Shown here: positions 12,062 through 29,583 of the stretch, one piece after another
Position numbering within the stretch: the stretch's first letter is position 1
How the letters are laid out: every line of letters begins with the position of its first letter
Source: an uncultured Planctomycetota bacterium
GTDB lineage: Bacteria; Planctomycetota; PLA2; JAEUHO01
Length of the DNA stretch: 64,000 nucleotides
Direction: 5' to 3'
Assembly: GCA_963752285.1 (NCBI GenBank)
Contig: CAVVXN010000004.1
Span: forward strand, 32,001 to 96,000
The notes under the pieces: model-generated
The model's input: the letters and a program-made list of their open reading frames with translations, nothing else
Told to the model about the DNA's origin: nothing
Databases searched by the model: none
Made by a program: the position numbers and the translations under genes

Positions 12062-13411
12062 CTACCCGACCATGACGTCGCCCTCGGGATGAGCGTACGC
12101 CAGACGCCGGCGCTCGCCGATGACCGACGCGGCGAGCACCAGCGGCCCGACCCTCCCGATGAACATGCAGGCCATGATGATCTCGAGGCCACGGTCCGAG
12201 AGGGTCGTCGTGACGCCCGTGGAGAGCCCGACGGTGCTGAGGGCGCTGACCACCTCGAAGAGGTGCTCCAGGAAGAGCCCCCGCGCGAGGTCGTGTGGGA
12301 CGTCGCCGAACTCCGTCGCCTGGAGGGAGAGCAACGCCAGGATCACCACGATCCCGTAGATCATGAAGATGGCCATGGCCTTCGCCGCGACGGCGCGCGG
12401 GACGCTCCGGCCCAGCATCTCCGTGTCGGGCCGGTTCAGGACGTGGCTCCACACGCGGGCCGAGATGATCGCGATGGTGCTCGTCTTGATGCCGCCGCCG
12501 GTCGAGCCCGGCGAGGCGCCGACCGCCATCAACAGCACGAGCACGAGCAGGCTCATGTTCGTGAGGTGCCCCGTGTCCACCGTGTTGAAGCCGGCGGTGC
12601 GCGCCGTGACCGAGAGGAAGAGCGAGTCAACGACGCTCGCCCCCTGCCCCCCGGGCTCGAGCTGGCTCGTAGACTCGAAGACGTAGAAGAGGACGGCGCC
12701 CGCCACGATCAACACGATGCTCGTGACGAGGACGACCCGCGTGTGGAAGTGGAGGCGATGCCGCTGGCGGCGCACGCGCCGGCCGAACCAGTGGACGACG
12801 TCCGCGGCCGCCACGAAGCCGATGCCGCCCGCGAAGATCAGGGCCATGATCACGACGTTCACCACGGTGTCGCCGCGGTACGCGGACAGGCTCGTGGAGA
12901 AGAGCGAGAAGCCCGCGTTGCAGAACGCCGAGACCGCGTGGAAGACGGCCTGCCAGAGCGCGGTCCCGAAGGGCGCCTTGCCCATGAAGCGCACCAGGAG
13001 CAGGGCGGCGCCGAGGGCCTCCGTCACGAACGTGAACACCACGATGTGGCCCAGGAGCTCGGTCGGCGTCACGCGCGGGAGGCCGCCGTACGTCTCCCGG
13101 GTCAGGACCGCGCCGCCGAGGTCGAGCCGGCGGCGGAGCGTCAGCATCACCCAGTTCGAGAGGGTGAGGACGCCGAGGCCGCCGACCTGGAGCAGGATCA
13201 GCACGAGGAGCTGTCCGGTGAAGGGCATTTCCTTCTGCAGGTCCACGACCGTGAGGCCCGTGACGCACACCGCCGAGGTGGAGGTGAAGGCGGCGTGCAG
13301 GAAGCCGTGCCCGGAACCGGGGGCGAAGCCGAAGAGGTCGAGCGCGACCGTCCCGACCGTGATCAGGCCGAGGAAGGTCAGCACCGTGAGGAGCGCGGGG
13401 CGGTTTCGCAT
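12062..13411 (-). CDS. ktrB: KtrB/TrkH-family K+ uptake membrane subunit
   Basis: Selectivity-filter motifs SAVCVTGL, SAFCNAGFS, RTAGFNT, GASPGSTGGGIK, SALSTVGLS, MFIGRVG. Confidence 0.92.
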   Translation of the reverse strand: MRNRPALLTVLTFLGLITVGTVALDLFGFAPGSGHGFLHAAFTSTSAVCVTGLTVVDLQKEMPFTGQLLVLILLQVGGLGVLTLSNWVMLTLRRRLDLGGAVLTRETYGGLPRVTPTELLGHIVVFTFVTEALGAALLLVRFMGKAPFGTALWQAVFHAVSAFCNAGFSLFSTSLSAYRGDTVVNVVIMALIFAGGIGFVAAADVVHWFGRRVRRQRHRLHFHTRVVLVTSIVLIVAGAVLFYVFESTSQLEPGGQGASVVDSLFLSVTARTAGFNTVDTGHLTNMSLLVLVLLMAVGASPGSTGGGIKTSTIAIISARVWSHVLNRPDTEMLGRSVPRAVAAKAMAIFMIYGIVVILALLSLQATEFGDVPHDLARGLFLEHLFEVVSALSTVGLSTGVTTTLSDRGLEIIMACMFIGRVGPLVLAASVIGERRRLAYAHPEGDVMVG

Positions 13412-21283: not shown

Positions 21284-21367
21284 GGAGGGTGCGTGTAGCA
21301 CGCGCGTCCTCGGCAGACAACGCCCCGACGTCGATCCGGCAGGGCCTCCGCGCACCCGCCCGCGGGG

Positions 21368-21553
21368 CGGGCCCCAGGCGCACGCCGGACACCCTGCGGT
21401 CCGAACGCGAGGCTCCCGTCCCTCGGTGCGTGCACTTGTCGCGCCACGTGCTCGCGTCCCGACGCACGATTCGCAAAGAGGCCGGGCCCGGCCCCCCTAC
21501 GGCATGGGTGTGCTGTCGCACACCCGAGCCTACCCCCCAACCCGGTCGCTGGG
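21368..21553. repeat. 186-bp direct repeat, copy 1 (tRNA-linked)
   Basis: Near-identical to 21814-21999 (offset 446); contains hairpin GGGTGTGC-TGTC-GCACACCC. Confidence 0.9.
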
Positions 21554-21602
21554 GCGCCTCTTCATGAGGTCGCCTGCTGAGAACGGGAGGGCAACGTGAA
21601 AA

Positions 21603-21628
21603 TGGTCGGGGCGACTGGATTCGAACCA
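21603..21628 (-). repeat. Duplicated 3' 26 nt of tRNA-Pro (T-arm + acceptor 3' strand + CCA)
   Basis: TGGTCGGGGCGACTGGATTCGAACCA on + strand, identical to 22047-22072. Confidence 0.9.
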
Positions 21629-21813
21629 ACGGCCCACCCGCCGCTTCGCGTCGGGCGTGCCGTTGGGAACCAGCGACGCCGCCACTTCAGGGGGGCCTTG
21701 ACGGCCCGACCTACGCGCGACTCGCGCGGTCCGGCGCACGCCTGGAACCCGATGCCTGCGTTGCTCGTCGTCCACGACCCCTTCGGGGTCGCCTCCTCCT
21801 CGCGCCTTGGCCT

Positions 21814-21999
21814 CGGGCCCCAGGCGCACGCCGGACACCCTGCGGTCCGAACGCGAGGCTCCCGTCCCTCGGTGCGTGCGCGTGTCGCGTCGCGTGCTCG
21901 CGTCCCGACGCACGATTCGCACGCAGGCCGGGCCCGGCCCCCCTACGGCATGGGTGTGCTGTCGCACACCCGAGCCTACCCCCCAACCCGGTCGCTGGG
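21814..21999. repeat. 186-bp direct repeat, copy 2 (tRNA-linked)
   Basis: Near-identical to 21368-21553. Confidence 0.9.
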
Positions 22000-22046
22000 T
22001 GCTTCTCCGTGCGGTCGCGTCGTGCCAACGGGCGGGAGACGAGAGT

Positions 22047-22124
22047 TGGTCGGGGCGACTGGATTCGAACCAGCGACCTCCTGAACCCCATTCAGGCGCG
22101 CTACCAAATCTGCGCCACGCCCCG
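22047..22124 (-). tRNA. tRNA-Pro (GGG)
   Basis: CGGGGCGTGGCGCAGATTTGGTAGCGCGCCTGAATGGGGTTCAGGAGGTCGCTGGTTCGAATCCAGTCGCCCCGACCA; full cloverleaf, GGG anticodon, encoded CCA. Confidence 0.97.
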
Positions 22125-22297: not shown

Positions 22298-23668
<1,371 letters not shown>

Positions 23669-23868
23669 GCGACCGCCACGCCGCGCGCGTCCGCGTATCC
23701 CTCGCGACACGTCGTTCCTGATCGCGCCCGGCGCTACCCGTTCGCCACGCGCGCGGCGCCTCGGACGCGGTGAGCCGCCGGCGATCGACGAAGCGTGTCC
23801 CTCGCACGGGCCGATTCTGCGCCGCCTCGAGAACGCGCGTCTCCCGGAGGGAACGCCGCGTCACCTTC

Positions 23869-23883
23869 GGGCACGTCCGCTGC
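23869..23883 (+). promoter_or_regulatory. Candidate sigma-54 -24/-12 promoter
   Basis: GGGCACG-TCCG-CTGC about 60 nt upstream of the HEAT-repeat gene. Confidence 0.45.
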
Positions 23884-23943
23884 GAGAGCAAGCGTCGAAC
23901 GCCGCGGATCGGCCACGCCGCGCGCGAAGAAGGAGATCCTGCC

Positions 23944-26043
23944 ATGCGCGTCCCGTTCCTCTCGTCGTCGATCGCGTGCGTCCTCGCGTCGCTCTTCCTC
24001 TCGCTCGGCGCCGCCGAGGCGTTCGCGCACGGCGGTCAGTTCCGCGGACCCGGCGACGGGGTCCCACCGAACCTCAGGGCGCCCACGGACCCGACGCCGC
24101 CTCCGCCGCCGACCCCGAGCGGCGGGCCGACGCCGACAAGCGGTCCCTCGCCCACGCCCGTCACGCCGCCGACGGGGCCGACCGCTCCGACCACCACGCC
24201 CCCCGTCGGGACGCCGAGCCTGCCCTCGACTCCGGGGCGACGCACGACCCCCGTCACGCCCGACGACTGGCGCTTCTGGTACCACCAGAACAAGGATCAG
24301 CTCGAGAACCTGAAGCGCGCCATCTACGGGCTCCACGCGAGCGGCGGGGGGATCTTCCAGCACGGCGGAGAGGCCCCCACGAACCAGGATGCCGCGACGC
24401 GCCTCACGCAGCGGAAGGTGGTCGAGATGATCGTCCCGACGCTGCTCTGGGCGATGGATCCCACGCACGGCCTCGACGACGACACGCGCTCCGGCGCCTA
24501 CCTCGCGCTCGCGAAGGTGACGCGGGACGTCGCGCACGTGGACCTGATCGCGGCGGCGATCGATCGGGAGAAGAAGCAGCCCGTGCTGGTGAGCGGCTCC
24601 GCGGCGCTGGCCCTGGGGATGCTCCGCCGCGAGCGCCCCGAGGACCAGCTCCCCGCGAAGGACGTCGATCGCGCACGCGAGATCCTGTTCCAAAGCTTCG
24701 AGGACGACGAGCAGCCGACCCGCGTGCGGGCCTTCGCAGCCGCGGCGATCGGCCTGCTCGGCGACCAGCCGACGGGATCGGGCGCCTACGCGGGCGACCG
24801 TGCGGCGGCGGCGCACGCGACCACGAAACACCTCTTCGACCTCCTCGATCGCCCGTGGCCCGACGCCGACCTGTCGATCTCGCTGGCTCTCGCCGTCGGC
24901 CTCCAGCCGCCCGCCTCCCTGGACGCTTCCGAGCTCGACGTCCTCACGCGGATCGCGGTGCTCGGGCGGCTGTCGAGCCGCCGCCTCGGCGAGCTCGAGC
25001 GTGCGTACGCCGCCCTGGCCCTCGGTCGGATCGGCACGTCCGCCCAGATCCCCGTGCTCTCGAACCTGGTGGTCGCGCGCCGCGGCGTGAGCGACTCCGT
25101 GCGGCGGAGTGCGACGATCGGCCTCGGGCTCCTCGCGCGGCACACGGACGGGTCGGGGCGCGTCGAGCTCGCGAGGACCCTCGTCCACGCGATCGATCGG
25201 ACCCGCGACCCGACCACCCGCGACTTCGCGCTGATCAGCCTGGCGCACGTGCTCGTCGCCGAGGTCGGTGCGGGATCGACCGACGTTCTCGAGGGCACGA
25301 AGGCCACGGAGACCCTGCTCGCGCGCTCCGACCGGCGCGCGTCCATCGAACAGCCCTTCGCGTCGCTCGCGTTGGGCCTGGTCGCCGGGGCGGTGCCGGA
25401 CGAGCTCGAGGTAGACGCCTGGCAGGCCCTCCGTGAGCGCACGGTCCAGTCGCTCCGACTCGGTCTCGCCGACCGGAGCCGCGGTCCCCGGGCCCGCGCA
25501 GCCTGCGCCACCGCGCTCGGCATCGCGCGGGACCGGGGCAGCGTGAAGACGCTCGTCGAGGTGCTCGGTGGACGCGACGACGACCCCGAGCTCCGCGCGT
25601 ACGCGGGGCTCGCGATCGGGCTGATCGGCGTTCCGGCCAACGAGGCCGTACGGGCGCTCGGCGAGGCCGTACGCGAGCGGTCGTCCGAGGTGCTGCGCCG
25701 TGAGTGCGCGGTCGGGCTCGGGCTGCTCGGGAACCCCGCGATCCCCGGCACGAATCAAAACGCGCTCGACCTGCTCCTCCACGAGCTCGAGAACGCGCGG
25801 ACCGAGGCGCACAAGGCCGAGGTCGTGACCGCGATCGCGCGCATCGGCGACCACCGCGCCGTGGACCGCCTCGTGGCGCTCCTTCGAGACCCGCACGAGC
25901 AGGACGCGACGCGTGCGATGGCCTGCGTGGGGCTGGGGCAGATCGGGGACCTCGAGTGGATCCCGTCGCTGGCCCGCCTCACCAAGGACCACAACTACCG
26001 CGCGTCCACCGACTTCGTACGGGAGCTGATGAGCGTCCTCTGA
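23944..26043 (+). CDS. Secreted HEAT-repeat protein with Pro/Thr-rich linker
   Basis: Signal peptide then HGGQFRGPGD; PT-rich stretch; repeated AALALG/AAIGLLG HEAT-like units; AAGGAG RBS. Confidence 0.8.
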   Translation: MRVPFLSSSIACVLASLFLSLGAAEAFAHGGQFRGPGDGVPPNLRAPTDPTPPPPPTPSGGPTPTSGPSPTPVTPPTGPTAPTTTPPVGTPSLPSTPGRRTTPVTPDDWRFWYHQNKDQLENLKRAIYGLHASGGGIFQHGGEAPTNQDAATRLTQRKVVEMIVPTLLWAMDPTHGLDDDTRSGAYLALAKVTRDVAHVDLIAAAIDREKKQPVLVSGSAALALGMLRRERPEDQLPAKDVDRAREILFQSFEDDEQPTRVRAFAAAAIGLLGDQPTGSGAYAGDRAAAAHATTKHLFDLLDRPWPDADLSISLALAVGLQPPASLDASELDVLTRIAVLGRLSSRRLGELERAYAALALGRIGTSAQIPVLSNLVVARRGVSDSVRRSATIGLGLLARHTDGSGRVELARTLVHAIDRTRDPTTRDFALISLAHVLVAEVGAGSTDVLEGTKATETLLARSDRRASIEQPFASLALGLVAGAVPDELEVDAWQALRERTVQSLRLGLADRSRGPRARAACATALGIARDRGSVKTLVEVLGGRDDDPELRAYAGLAIGLIGVPANEAVRALGEAVRERSSEVLRRECAVGLGLLGNPAIPGTNQNALDLLLHELENARTEAHKAEVVTAIARIGDHRAVDRLVALLRDPHEQDATRAMACVGLGQIGDLEWIPSLARLTKDHNYRASTDFVRELMSVL

Positions 26044-26358
26044 CGGCGCCCCGACCGCCGTCACCGACCCCGTTCGTCCGGTCTCAAGGGAGAATGCGTG
26101 GAAACCTCGTAGACGGGGGACGGGAACCGGAGTTCCCGAACTCCTCCAGACCGTTCCCACCGCCGAAGTGCCGGTGACCACACGACTTGCGGCGACTCTC
26201 CACCGACTCTCCACCCTGAGGGCGGGAATGCGGGTTCCCGACCCCCGGTCGTACGCATTGTGGAGCCGCGGGCCGAAGGCCCCGTCCGGACGCCGCAAGT
26301 CCTTGCCGCCCAACGCCCGCATCCCCGCCCGTGGGTTCTCGTCGGCGTGGAGACTGAC

Positions 26359-26373
26359 TGGCCCGGCGCTTGC
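26359..26373 (+). promoter_or_regulatory. Sigma-54 -24/-12 promoter of the putative large ncRNA
   Basis: TGGCCCG-GCGC-TTGC matches TGGCACG-N4-TTGC with exact spacing; predicts a TSS near 26385. Confidence 0.65.
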
Positions 26374-26385
26374 CTTCCCTCTCTC

Positions 26386-27550
26386 GCCCCCAATGAGGGG
26401 CAGACGCTCTGTGAAAGACAAGCACTGACGAACGGACGACGTGTTCAGTCGAGCACCGAGGGACGGTGGCGCCGGGTCGCGAGCCTAGGAACCGCGACTG
26501 CATCACCGCCGAGGGGGCAAAGAGCGCAGTCGGGATCGCCTGTCAAGCGATCGCCTGCGCGAGGCGAAGCCATGAGCCCGCCCCCCGGCGTGATGAACGG
26601 AGCGCCACGACGGTCGAAAGGTGCGAAATCCCAGGAGAGCCGGCAGCCCGGAAACGGGCCAGGCCGACCCATCCGATCCGCAAAGCCCTGAGGTCCAAGC
26701 AGGTAGGGACGTCACCCTGCCCGAGGGCGAGAGGGCCGGCCCCGCGACTACAAGCGGGCGCCCGGACGGATGGGGGGAACGCTCTGGAGGGACGAAGCCC
26801 AGGAAGGCATCGTCGGTCGGGCGGCTTCGGCCGTCCGACGACAGCACGGACTCGCCGCGGGAAGGAAGCCTTGAAGGCGACCGCGCGTTCCTCGGTCTCC
26901 CCCGGGAGACCTGGAGCCGCGGGAACGTCAGGAGGGCAGGGGCCCCGAGAGGGGTACCGACCGTGGGCGAGGGGAAAGCCTTGGAGGGCGAAGCCCGAGG
27001 ACGCTCCGGCGCTTCGGCGCCGGGAGGATCGGTGGTTTCAGGCCGCGAGGGGGGTAGCCAAACCCCGGACGCGGCACGCGGCGGCGGGGGGACCCGCCGT
27101 CATCCCCAGCGGATCCGCCGGTCCGGCATGTGTCGTAGGGCAAGAGAAGCTCAGGAGAGGCAGCACTGCGTGACAGGTTCCGCGCCGGCTTCGGCCGGCG
27201 GGCGGGGACGACGCGGTGCGGGGCTCGGAGGGCACGTCTCTGAAGGGGCGCGAAAGCGCAAGGAGGGCCTCCGGCGACCTCGGTCACCGGATGGCCGCGA
27301 GGATGAACTCCCCGATGGGCGTCGAAACGCCGTACGGGGTGGGCGGAACCCATGACCGCCCGTGGCCTCGCGGTCCGCGTCCTCGGAGCGCCACGAAACC
27401 CCACGAGAGGCAGCCGAGGCAACGTGTTCACGAGGCGCTCGGCAACCTTCCCAGCCCTCACTCCTCTGGAGGGCCCGATCGACGCTCGAATGCGAACTCC
27501 CTCGTCAGGCTTTGTTGAGCCCGGGGTGTGGGCAACCACGCCCCGGGCTC
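26386..27550 (+). ncRNA. Putative large (~1.17 kb) highly structured non-coding RNA, family not recognised
   Basis: No credible ORF; 5'/3' long-range helix; three cUUCGg and several GNRA hairpins; recurring GAAxCxCAGGAGAG and AAGCyyTGrAGG motifs; bounded by a sigma-54 promoter and a terminal hairpin. Confidence 0.7.
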
Positions 27551-27560
27551 TCTCCATTTC
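27517..27560 (+). terminator. Terminal 15-bp hairpin, probable intrinsic terminator
   Basis: GAGCCCGGGGTGTGG-GCAA-CCACGCCCCGGGCTC followed by TCTCCATTTC. Confidence 0.6.
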
Positions 27561-27628
27561 CAGGGCGCGGACCGCCGGTGTGGACCGCGCGTCGCACGTC
27601 TCTGGGGCCGCCCACGGGCCGGCCCCGG

Positions 27629-28642
27629 CTACAGCAGGTCCTCGGCCTCGTCCTTCGGGCCGCGCAGCATCAGCGAGCGCACGACCTCCTTCGGCGGCTT
27701 CCCTTCGTGGACCGCGTAGTAGACCTGCTCCGAGATCGGGAGCGCGAGTCCGTGCTCGTGCATCAGCTCGTGCACGGGCCGCGACGTCTTGATGCCCTCC
27801 GCGACCATGCTGGTGCTCGCCGCGATGTCCTCGGCGCGCTCGCCGCGCCCGAGGCGTTCGCCGAACGTGCGATTGCGGCTCGCGCGCGAGTAGCACGTCG
27901 TCAGGAGGTCCCCGAGCCCGGACATGCCGAAGAAGGTCCTTCGCCGTCCACCGAGGCGCTCGCCGAGGCGGGCCATCTCCACGACCCCGCGCTGCACCAG
28001 CGCCGCCTTCGCGTTCTCGCCGAGCTTCAGCCCGTCGCACATGCCGGCGGCGATCGCGATGACGTTCTTCAGCACGCCGCCGAGCTCCACGCCGAGGACG
28101 TCGGAGTTCGAGTAGACGCGGAAGCGCTCGCCCGCGAAGGTGTGCTGGACCCCACGGAGCACGGCGGCGTCCGGGCACGCGACGACCGTGGCCGCGGGAA
28201 GTCCGTGCGCGATCTCGCGGGCGATGTTGGGACCCGACAGGACCGCGATCGGCCGCCCGCCCGCGAGCTCCTCGAGGATCTGCGTCGGCCGCTTGAGCGT
28301 GCCGTCCTCGAGACCCTTCGTCACCGAGACGATGGGGACGCCCGGCGGGAGCACGCGCGCGTGCGCGGACCACACCTCACGGAGGTACGTCGTGGGGACC
28401 GCCGAGACGATGAGGTCCACGCCTTCGAGGACCTCCTCGAGCCGACTCGAGACCGCGATCGACCGCGGGATCTCGAAGCCCGGGAGGTACCGCGGGTTCG
28501 TTCGCGTCTCGGCCATGTGCGTGGCGTACTCGGGGTCGTACCCCCACAGCGCCACCCGCTCGACGCGGCTCGCGAGGTACGTCGCGAGCGCCGTGCCCCA
28601 GCCCCCGTCACCCACGACCACGACGCTTCGAGCCTGGTCCAT
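27629..28642 (-). CDS. gpsA: NAD(P)H-dependent glycerol-3-phosphate dehydrogenase
   Basis: GDGGWGTALA, TKGLE, LSGPN.A.E, LKNVIAIAAG, GLGDL..TC, SRNR, AEG. Confidence 0.95.
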   Translation of the reverse strand: MDQARSVVVVGDGGWGTALATYLASRVERVALWGYDPEYATHMAETRTNPRYLPGFEIPRSIAVSSRLEEVLEGVDLIVSAVPTTYLREVWSAHARVLPPGVPIVSVTKGLEDGTLKRPTQILEELAGGRPIAVLSGPNIAREIAHGLPAATVVACPDAAVLRGVQHTFAGERFRVYSNSDVLGVELGGVLKNVIAIAAGMCDGLKLGENAKAALVQRGVVEMARLGERLGGRRRTFFGMSGLGDLLTTCYSRASRNRTFGERLGRGERAEDIAASTSMVAEGIKTSRPVHELMHEHGLALPISEQVYYAVHEGKPPKEVVRSLMLRGPKDEAEDLL

Positions 28643-28755
28643 CCTGCCTCCGGGGGCCACCGGCCCGCCCACGCCGGGATTGTGCCCCGAAACCAGGCGG
28701 GCTCGCCGGGTCCGTAGACTGACCGCCTCGCCTTCGTGTCGATCGGGAGGTCCGG

Positions 28756-29583
<828 letters not shown>

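Follow-up and report, generated by a model that had tools for sequence, protein, structure and literature searches.

A candidate new class of large bacterial non-coding RNA with repeated domains in mostly uncultured bacteria of three phyla

The window analysed here is a 64,000-nucleotide stretch of DNA from an uncultured Planctomycetota bacterium, and its region 26359–27560 is a stand-alone non-coding RNA gene with a promoter, a leader, an RNA body and a terminator. It can hardly be doubted that this RNA belongs to a real and expressed class, and the data support its assignment to a new class of large bacterial RNA, to which a function can only be ascribed indirectly. A large, structured, independently transcribed RNA, possibly of an undescribed class, had been proposed in the preliminary description of this region, and the proposal was upheld by conservation, covariation, the non-coding character of the region, the lack of Rfam matches at the gathering score and RNA-library contigs of relatives confined to the gene. 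That description did not include the boxA, the enhancer sites, the activator linked to the gene or the architecture of repeated domains.

Gene unit and transcript ends

The interval is flanked by a HEAT-repeat gene (Pfam HEAT_2) and by the convergent gene gpsA. A sigma-54 −24/−12 promoter (GG-N10-GC) is located at 26359–26373 on the + strand, with a predicted start near 26385. The sigma-54 transcription suggested earlier holds for the family, where the element is found at the same place in 25/26 loci (TGG-N8-TTGC in 18, GG-N10-GC variants in 7), but not for the class as a whole: in distant members, sigma-70-type promoters were found, together with a closing helix beginning at the predicted start site and terminators. 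Predicted sigma-54 control is confined to the order to which the window belongs.

A gene encoding a sigma-54 activator is located upstream (22298–23668, + strand; Pfam PF00158 and PF02954). Its translation comprises a receiver-like N-terminus, which is a lead only (score 0.81), an AAA+ domain with the GAFTGA motif and a Fis-type HTH. In 24/24 family genomes holding both genes, the activator gene lies upstream of the RNA on the same contig and strand at a distance of less than 4 kb, and its product is the probable dedicated activator of the RNA gene. Two enhancer-like palindromes GGGMA-N6-TKCCC are located at 26122–26137 and 26224–26239; their distances to the −24 GG downstream are about 238 and 136 bp, respectively. 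In 15/26 family loci, 23 instances of this palindrome were found, nearly all at these two fixed distances. The genome contains 15 strict matches, with no excess over other spacer lengths; since only the copies at 26122 and 26224 are paired and ahead of a sigma-54-like site, the RNA is apparently the only target of the activator. No further regulon members were found when the genome was searched with the enhancer motif. The genes rpoN and nusB and an RNase III domain are all present in the genome. Thus, all features of a sigma-54 transcription unit, namely the GG-N10-GC element, upstream enhancer sites, a GAFTGA activator and rpoN, can be recognised at the sequence level.

In the family relatives, the activator gene is located directly upstream of the RNA gene or is separated from it by other insertions. 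Among the family loci compared, the HEAT-repeat gene (23770–26043, likely start 23944) lies between the two only in the genome of the window, where it was evidently inserted. Further upstream, a tRNA-Pro gene (22047–22124, − strand) is accompanied by a repeat that apparently re-copies its 3′ end near 21600; this repeat (about 21300–22124) is visible as duplicated translations.

The promoter is followed on the + strand by a leader hairpin at 26386–26401, in a boxB-like position, which is variable in sequence and missing in some members, and by a boxA-like antitermination signal at 26406–26417, where the window has TCTGTGA and the family has TCTTTGA (one change). The motif TCTTT[GC]A after a variable hairpin was found in 20/26 family loci, and the only TCTTTGA[AC]AA of the genome is in the 16S–23S spacer. 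According to a published article, the rrn boxA of B. subtilis is AUGAUCUUUGAAA behind a small 5′ hairpin, and the boxA of the window family agrees with the consensus given there (PMC13753749). The features of an rrn-type boxA, i.e., the 5′ hairpin, the consensus and a NusB gene, are all found here, with one mismatch in the window copy. A boxA-like match was found at the expected place in just 13/40 distant loci, which counts against the chain of events proposed below.

The terminal hairpin reported in the preliminary description could be identified as an intrinsic terminator (27517–27560, + strand). It lies outside the mature RNA and is uncovered by the RNA-library contigs of relatives. A U-rich tail follows it in 19/23 homologs and is weak in the window copy (4/8). 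A scan of the window region for sigma-70 promoters and terminators gave 0 and 0 matches, the window terminator having escaped it because of its weak U tail.

The mature RNA probably corresponds to 26423–27512 on the + strand (about 1,090 nt), with the leader and terminator removed, because RNA-Seq and JGI contigs of relatives begin and end at the closing stem; the earlier prediction of an RNA of ~1.17 kb starting near 26385 has to be revised. The 5′ arm of this stem, defined by pairing and compensatory changes, is located at 26420–26431 (mature 5′ end about 26423–26430) and the 3′ arm at 27502–27512 (mature 3′ end about 27510–27512), both on the + strand. As a side observation, the RNase III domain of the genome (G000:C5:1959871-1960242) is part of a 609-codon open frame, longer than the usual RNase III and possibly a fusion.

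Small shares of the sequence were found in ten runs, 8 of them recorded as RNA-Seq from two studies, and four of the ten were mapped to 24800–29300 at 80% likeness. The resulting contigs come from relatives 80–99% alike and are strandless. The summed depth was about 40 to 23,500 in bins 26461–27517, compared with 0 to 24 in the genes on either side; this is no measure of expression because the runs were picked with the window sequence and several organisms were summed. One RNA-Seq contig of 1,104 nt spans 26427–27511 and continues into an extra tail, presumably adapter-like, and another contig ends at 27510. A further RNA-Seq contig (depth 159) joins 27512 to 26423, with 68 letters on the short side; this single joint may reflect a minor circle or a jump of the reverse transcriptase between adjacent ends.

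A pattern scan of JGI contigs revealed at least 120 loci, the DNA was taken for 80 of them, and 6 cut at the flank limit were dropped, leaving 74. Among the matches listed, 68/74 whole contigs had a length of 1,015–1,210 nt, and the motif was located 545 ± 37 nt from the 5′ end (about 310 expected if random); all listed contigs exceed 1 kb, and a length floor could bias the lengths but not the motif position. The listed contigs of the window family start at 26425–26435 in 8/8 cases and end at 27507–27514 in 7/8, the eighth carrying an unrelated tail. Wrap-around was found in 0/74 whole contigs and terminal repeats in 0/121, among the matches listed. Since the contig ends are fixed at the closing stem and none of the 74 listed contigs wraps around, the main form appears to be a discrete, mostly linear RNA bounded by this stem.

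Two tiny contigs from unrelated isolate assemblies labelled Pilosibacter fragilis (L067, 1–1006) and Stutzerimonas marianensis (L070, 1–849) lie entirely inside a planctomycete copy of the RNA and are 96–99.8% identical to it. They are probably contamination, which would fit carry-over of an abundant RNA.

Structure and repeated domains

The motifs listed in the preliminary description, including the −24/−12 element, the hairpin at 26386–26401, three end-to-end complementarities, three cUUCGg hairpins and a 15-bp hairpin at 27517–27550, were all located where they had been placed. Hairpins capped by UUCG or GNRA tetraloops, previously assigned to the + strand, number 8 on that strand of the window and 1 on the other (300 dinucleotide shuffles: mean 1.2, maximum 5), and in 31 homologs the corresponding averages are 7.4 and 0.7. 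Folding z-scores of the three thirds of the + strand were −3.5, −3.9 and −1.3; since 1/4 coding control stretches folded at z = −3.0, the folding energy alone is modest evidence.

The region had been said to hold no typical ORF. Two open frames, of 235 and 244 aa, do run through it, but a Pfam search of both gave no match, and they are not conserved in homologs. Only 122/743 indels in homologs keep the frame, and the GC content by codon position is flat (0.74/0.69/0.70) compared with that of the HEAT gene (0.75/0.54/0.92). A coding signal was therefore absent by both indels and codon-position GC.

Covariation supported the helices in the family, distant subfamily and core-domain alignments. 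In the alignment of 31 family sequences, 16/17 top covarying pairs fall within the RNAalifold structure (G-test with APC, 10 tree-based null alignments, E ≤ 0.5), and in the consensus structure both sides vary at 236/334 pairs, with 90% of cells paired. The distant subfamily (34 contigs) has the same topology, with 17/18 top pairs in the structure; both full-length alignments were sequence-only. For the core domain D3 (100 sequences from three phyla), both sides vary at 37/42 pairs, and the share of paired cells is 96%, compared with 71% in shuffles and 37–46% for slid partners, in an alignment that had been fitted to the model. The null test of this domain left 29 pairs with no null match in 60 simulations, namely 28 within helices and a single non-canonical one, 27048:27069, which covaries as GG 52, AA 42 and CA 4.

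Among the long-range helices of the preliminary description, the closing helix CTGACGA/TCGTCAG and the medium-range helix CCCATCCG/CGGATGGG hold in 31 homologs. The GTTC/GAAC helix is not supported (paired in just 8/31, 9/31, 13/24 and 2/28), and the TCGAGC/GCTCGA helix is poorly kept, the register 26449–26452/27479–27482 being better (27/31, 28/31, 27/31 and 23/31). In place of the GAAA hairpin reported at 27252, the consensus structure has long-range helices. No pseudoknot or loop–loop covariation was found in D3 or the two full-length alignments, the power of the latter being low at 31 and 34 sequences. It was also found that 39/47 invariant A residues are unpaired. A palindromic loop has ACGU in 30/31 family members and a central GC instead of CG in a sister family, which is a weak hint of possible self-assembly into a dimer or cage.

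According to the consensus structures, the RNA consists of five or six copies of one 135–195-nt domain, with ten 3x3 internal loops in total. In these loops, 5′-ANG-3′ is located opposite 5′-GNA-3′ and the middle position is variable; one end is a G-G pair in 304/310 cases, and the other is A-A in 238, G-G in 47 and C-A in 19. There are two such loops per domain, most of them 4 bp from a junction. In this domain plan, a loop helix is followed by a hairpin and then by a helix that encloses a further loop arm together with another hairpin. The plan is common to D1, D2, D3, D4 and D5, and D0 is a degenerate version.

All domains are on the + strand. D0 (26454–26623) has the topology of the repeat unit with degenerate loops, and its last hairpin loop is GAA-NNN-AUR (26566–26575). 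D1 (26629–26792) contains loops M1 (26633/26786) and M8 (26690/26729) and the palindromic loop GACGUC (26708–26713), and D2 (26797–26989) contains M2 (26801/26983) and M3 (26930/26873). D3 (26993–27141), with M4 (26997/27135) and M9 (27048/27067), is the best conserved across phyla. D4 (27149–27474) has M5 (27153/27468) and M6 (27403/27242), and its arm carries the nested D5 (27256–27391), with M7 (27260/27385) and M10 (27315/27332). In the loop survey, D5 showed a conserved loop AACC-N-AUR at 27346–27355. The two 10-nt hairpin loops at 26566–26575 and 27346–27355 follow the same plan GAA-NNN-AUR, and the second is kept in all three phyla; a search for a pairing partner of these loops revealed none.

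The model built from D3 aligned to 27235–27409, i.e., over D5, with 44.8 bits (E 2e-12). In many homologs it also matched D5 and, more weakly, D1 and D2 (D1 at 23–31 bits in several). These alignments support an ancient internal duplication. Local hairpins and k-turns were considered for the 3x3 module and rejected, since covariation pairs its strands at long range in the 3x3 register. A kink-turn has a 3-nt bulge followed by tandem G-A/A-G pairs, whereas the register here is symmetric, with G-G and A-A opposed and the flanking helices fixed by covariation.

Distribution and comparison with known RNAs

A DNA search of 101 relatives gave a match in 26/28 same-family genomes, and the true element was present in 25; the matches in genomes G008, G036 and G063 are short and are not the element. 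With a covariance model of the core domain built from 36 sequences, the element was found in 35/40 genomes of the order. The five misses include two genomes with a partial element at a contig end, one in which 239 bp separate the activator from the contig end, and one that is 57% complete. In the fifth, the family genome G015 (90% complete), the RNA gene has been lost, so it is not essential. At this locus (L297; G015:C1, about 12100–13000), the activator and one enhancer palindrome are kept and gpsA is directly next to them.

The genome of the window has a single copy. In samples of whole phyla, the core-domain model revealed the element in 22/151 evenly drawn genomes of Planctomycetota, in 32/151 genomes of the phylum to which a record labelled Myxococcales belongs (E < 1e-20 in 19 of them, and up to 6 copies in one genome) and in 7/17 genomes of a third, small phylum; some of the genomes counted had contributed to the model. 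About half of the 66 GTDB pattern matches were chance matches in coding DNA and were removed by the profile score. A blastn search against plasmids and phages gave no match, and of two pattern scans of viral contigs one found nothing and the other a single match. One contig of a viral collection (L248, 1449–3000) has the core motif at its very end and a tail like that of the distant subfamily, and may be host sequence.

The neighbouring genes are stable within a family and different between lineages, and none shared between phyla was found. A tRNA gene adjoins the element in 2/58 loci, and Pfam matches of 62 flanking frames included no reverse transcriptase, transposase or nuclease. Twin copies were observed in L304 (1496–2645 and 5321–6469), 3.8 kb apart and with unrelated flanks; their identity of 99.65% extends from the −10 box to shortly after the terminator. 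A comparable pair in L303 shows 96.5% identity. Such pairs may have arisen by gene conversion or by duplication of the unit, and no target-site duplication was seen. In addition, the whole contigs L148, L163 and L202 (1,827–1,899 nt) represent members of ~1.8–1.9 kb with insertions between domains.

The Rfam 15 covariance models, including those of GOLLD, ROOL, OLE, HEARO, MISL, introns and RNase P, matched only tRNA-Pro in the window at the gathering score. For the RNA region, E ≤ 10 gave hairpin noise only, and 14 homolog loci gave nothing at the gathering score. No description of this RNA class was found in the open-access literature; subscription journals and closed preprint supplements may hold one. 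The available part of the main text of the Minerva preprint (10.64898/2026.09.22.753630) does not mention the phyla of the window RNA.

Like GOLLD and ROOL, the RNA is large, multi-junction, bacterial and supported by covariation, with function and partner protein not assigned. In a preprint, ROOL is reported to reach the abundance of 16S rRNA (Kretsch et al., bioRxiv 10.1101/2024.12.08.627333). However, the RNA described here is longer (1.05–1.9 kb compared with about 660–800+ nt), chromosomal and syntenic instead of phage-, prophage- or tRNA-island-linked, built from repeats of one domain, linked to a sigma-54 activator and lacking a match in Rfam. OLE is an abundant, chromosomal, highly structured RNA of environmental bacteria, with the conserved partner gene oapA adjoining it. 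The present RNA shares the chromosomal location, the structured character and the environmental hosts, but it differs in phyla and size, has no Rfam match and has no conserved adjacent partner gene at its loci.

Its leader resembles that of rRNA operons in that a 5′ hairpin precedes a boxA of the same consensus and closing-stem arms mark the mature ends (PMC13753749), but the RNA body has no similarity to rRNA and a complete rrn operon is located elsewhere in the genome. RNase P, tmRNA, SRP and 5S RNAs are all found elsewhere as well, leaving no missing housekeeping RNA to replace. A 6S (RF00013) search of the genome gave no match, the control being detected in only 5/14; 6S is a rod of about 190 nt with a central bubble, in contrast to the multi-branched 1.1-kb RNA. 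Unlike group I/II introns, retrons and HEARO/omega RNA, the gene is intergenic, with its own promoter and terminator, and its flanking frames have no reverse transcriptase or nuclease match in Pfam.

Possible function

The reading that we favour, still tentatively as a whole, is a multivalent protein scaffold. The neighbouring activator would bind the two palindromes and open the sigma-54 promoter, the anatomy of which is evident. BoxA would then recruit NusB/S10, so that the untranslated kilobase would escape Rho. Cleavage of the precursor at the closing stem, for which RNase III is the probable enzyme, would give a mostly linear product of about 1,090 nt with the ends seen in relatives. As shown by covariation, the RNA folds into the five or six domain copies, and non-canonical G-G and A-A/G-G pairs close the ten 3x3 loops. 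The repeated loops may widen the helix groove and bind several copies of one host protein, which the RNA would store, sequester or organise once the activator switches it on.

The reason for favouring this reading is the tenfold retention of one loop, which resembles that of stem IIB of the HIV-1 RRE. The G-G/G-A loop of stem IIB opens the groove for Rev; like the present loop it is purine-rich, contains a G-G pair as well as another pair of purines around a variable middle base, and is one of several such sites on one RNA (PMC4488727). The likeness is an analogy without homology, the loop here being 3x3 and protein binding being presumed. A scaffold is also consistent with the conserved gene unit, the covariation, the non-coding character, the discrete ends in two independent contig collections, the near-invariant G-G and covarying A-A/G-G pairs, the duplication of a whole domain, which is expected if the number of sites matters, and the longer 1.8–1.9 kb members. 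CsrB/RsmZ sponges likewise present one motif many times on a stand-alone RNA, but their motif is GGA in hairpin loops; here it is a paired 3x3 internal loop (ANG/GNA), and GGA is not conserved. CsrA and Ro60 were sought in the genome (89% complete) and not found. Against the scaffold, no partner protein was found, the neighbours vary and none is common across phyla. The loops, being mostly 4 bp from a junction, equally fit a purely architectural bend. The contig depth, which is from relatives, and the strandless contigs weigh against the chain of events, as does the deletion of the gene in G015.

Ranked close behind is the reading as an RNA-only particle, which is possible although less likely than the scaffold. 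Loops, A-rich junctions, tetraloops and T-loop-like loops would pack the domains together, and several chains would be joined into an oligomer or cage, as in GOLLD, ROOL or the OLE dimer. The absence of a linked partner gene and the unpaired state of most invariant A residues suit such a particle. The CG-to-GC switch of the palindromic loop between families also suits it, and a kissing-loop switch of this kind is described for GOLLD in a preprint (bioRxiv 10.1101/2024.12.08.627333). However, the switch is a single event between two families, loop–loop covariation was not seen in D3 or the two full-length alignments, and the phage or tRNA linkage of GOLLD and ROOL is lacking.

The rRNA-style promoters, boxA and closing stem would also be expected of a translation-associated RNA that docks on ribosomes or tRNAs in storage or hibernation. 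Docking would use UGAAA loops, which we take to be T-loop-like and which occur in most deep members, and the two conserved 10-nt GAA-NNN-AUA loops. This is rather improbable: the window family has UUCG and other loops in place of UGAAA, the gene is not beside rRNA genes in the genome of the window, a tRNA neighbour is rare, and tmRNA, RNase P, SRP and 5S RNAs are all retained in the genome.

Catalytic RNAs reach the size and multi-junction complexity of this RNA, and the single end-to-start joint in an RNA library would fit a large ribozyme, its substrate not being assigned. We consider this unlikely, since conservation is spread over repeated modules and not concentrated in one unique core, no Rfam ribozyme matched, and none of the whole JGI contigs listed wraps around. 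It is even less probable that the RNA is a selfish or once-mobile element, non-autonomous, copied through RNA and domesticated in some hosts. The patchy distribution, the presence of up to 6 copies in one genome and the twin copies, alike over the transcription unit alone, point that way, but throughout the family the gene is single-copy and syntenic with its own activator; moreover, no mobility gene was seen among the flanking Pfam matches, no plasmid or phage matched, and the twin copies have no target-site duplication. Finally, a protein gene, UTR or DNA element, for which only the two open frames and the origin of the transcript data in relatives and not in the window copy could speak, is already largely refuted by frame-breaking indels, missing codon bias, strand-specific tetraloops, G-U-tolerant covariation, contigs with fixed ends, an own promoter and terminator and the convergent downstream gene.

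Taken more broadly, the balance of evidence leans slightly towards a stable RNA class longer than GOLLD, ROOL and OLE, with one domain multiplied, rRNA-type transcription and its own activator, which is abundant in sediment and soil bacteria and serves as a repetitive scaffold or particle with a core role in several phyla. Large RNAs that are conserved in bacteria are uncommon, and the majority of those known are ribozymes or components of core machines. The present RNA is chromosomal, near-universal in its order and found in three phyla of mostly uncultured bacteria. It is probably a part of the unassigned RNA reads of environmental samples, because it occurs as free-standing kilobase contigs in many public assemblies. 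Its repeat architecture offers an RNA domain and an internal-loop motif that are both new, and its function can be tested directly by way of the dedicated activator, the natural deletion and the defined ends.
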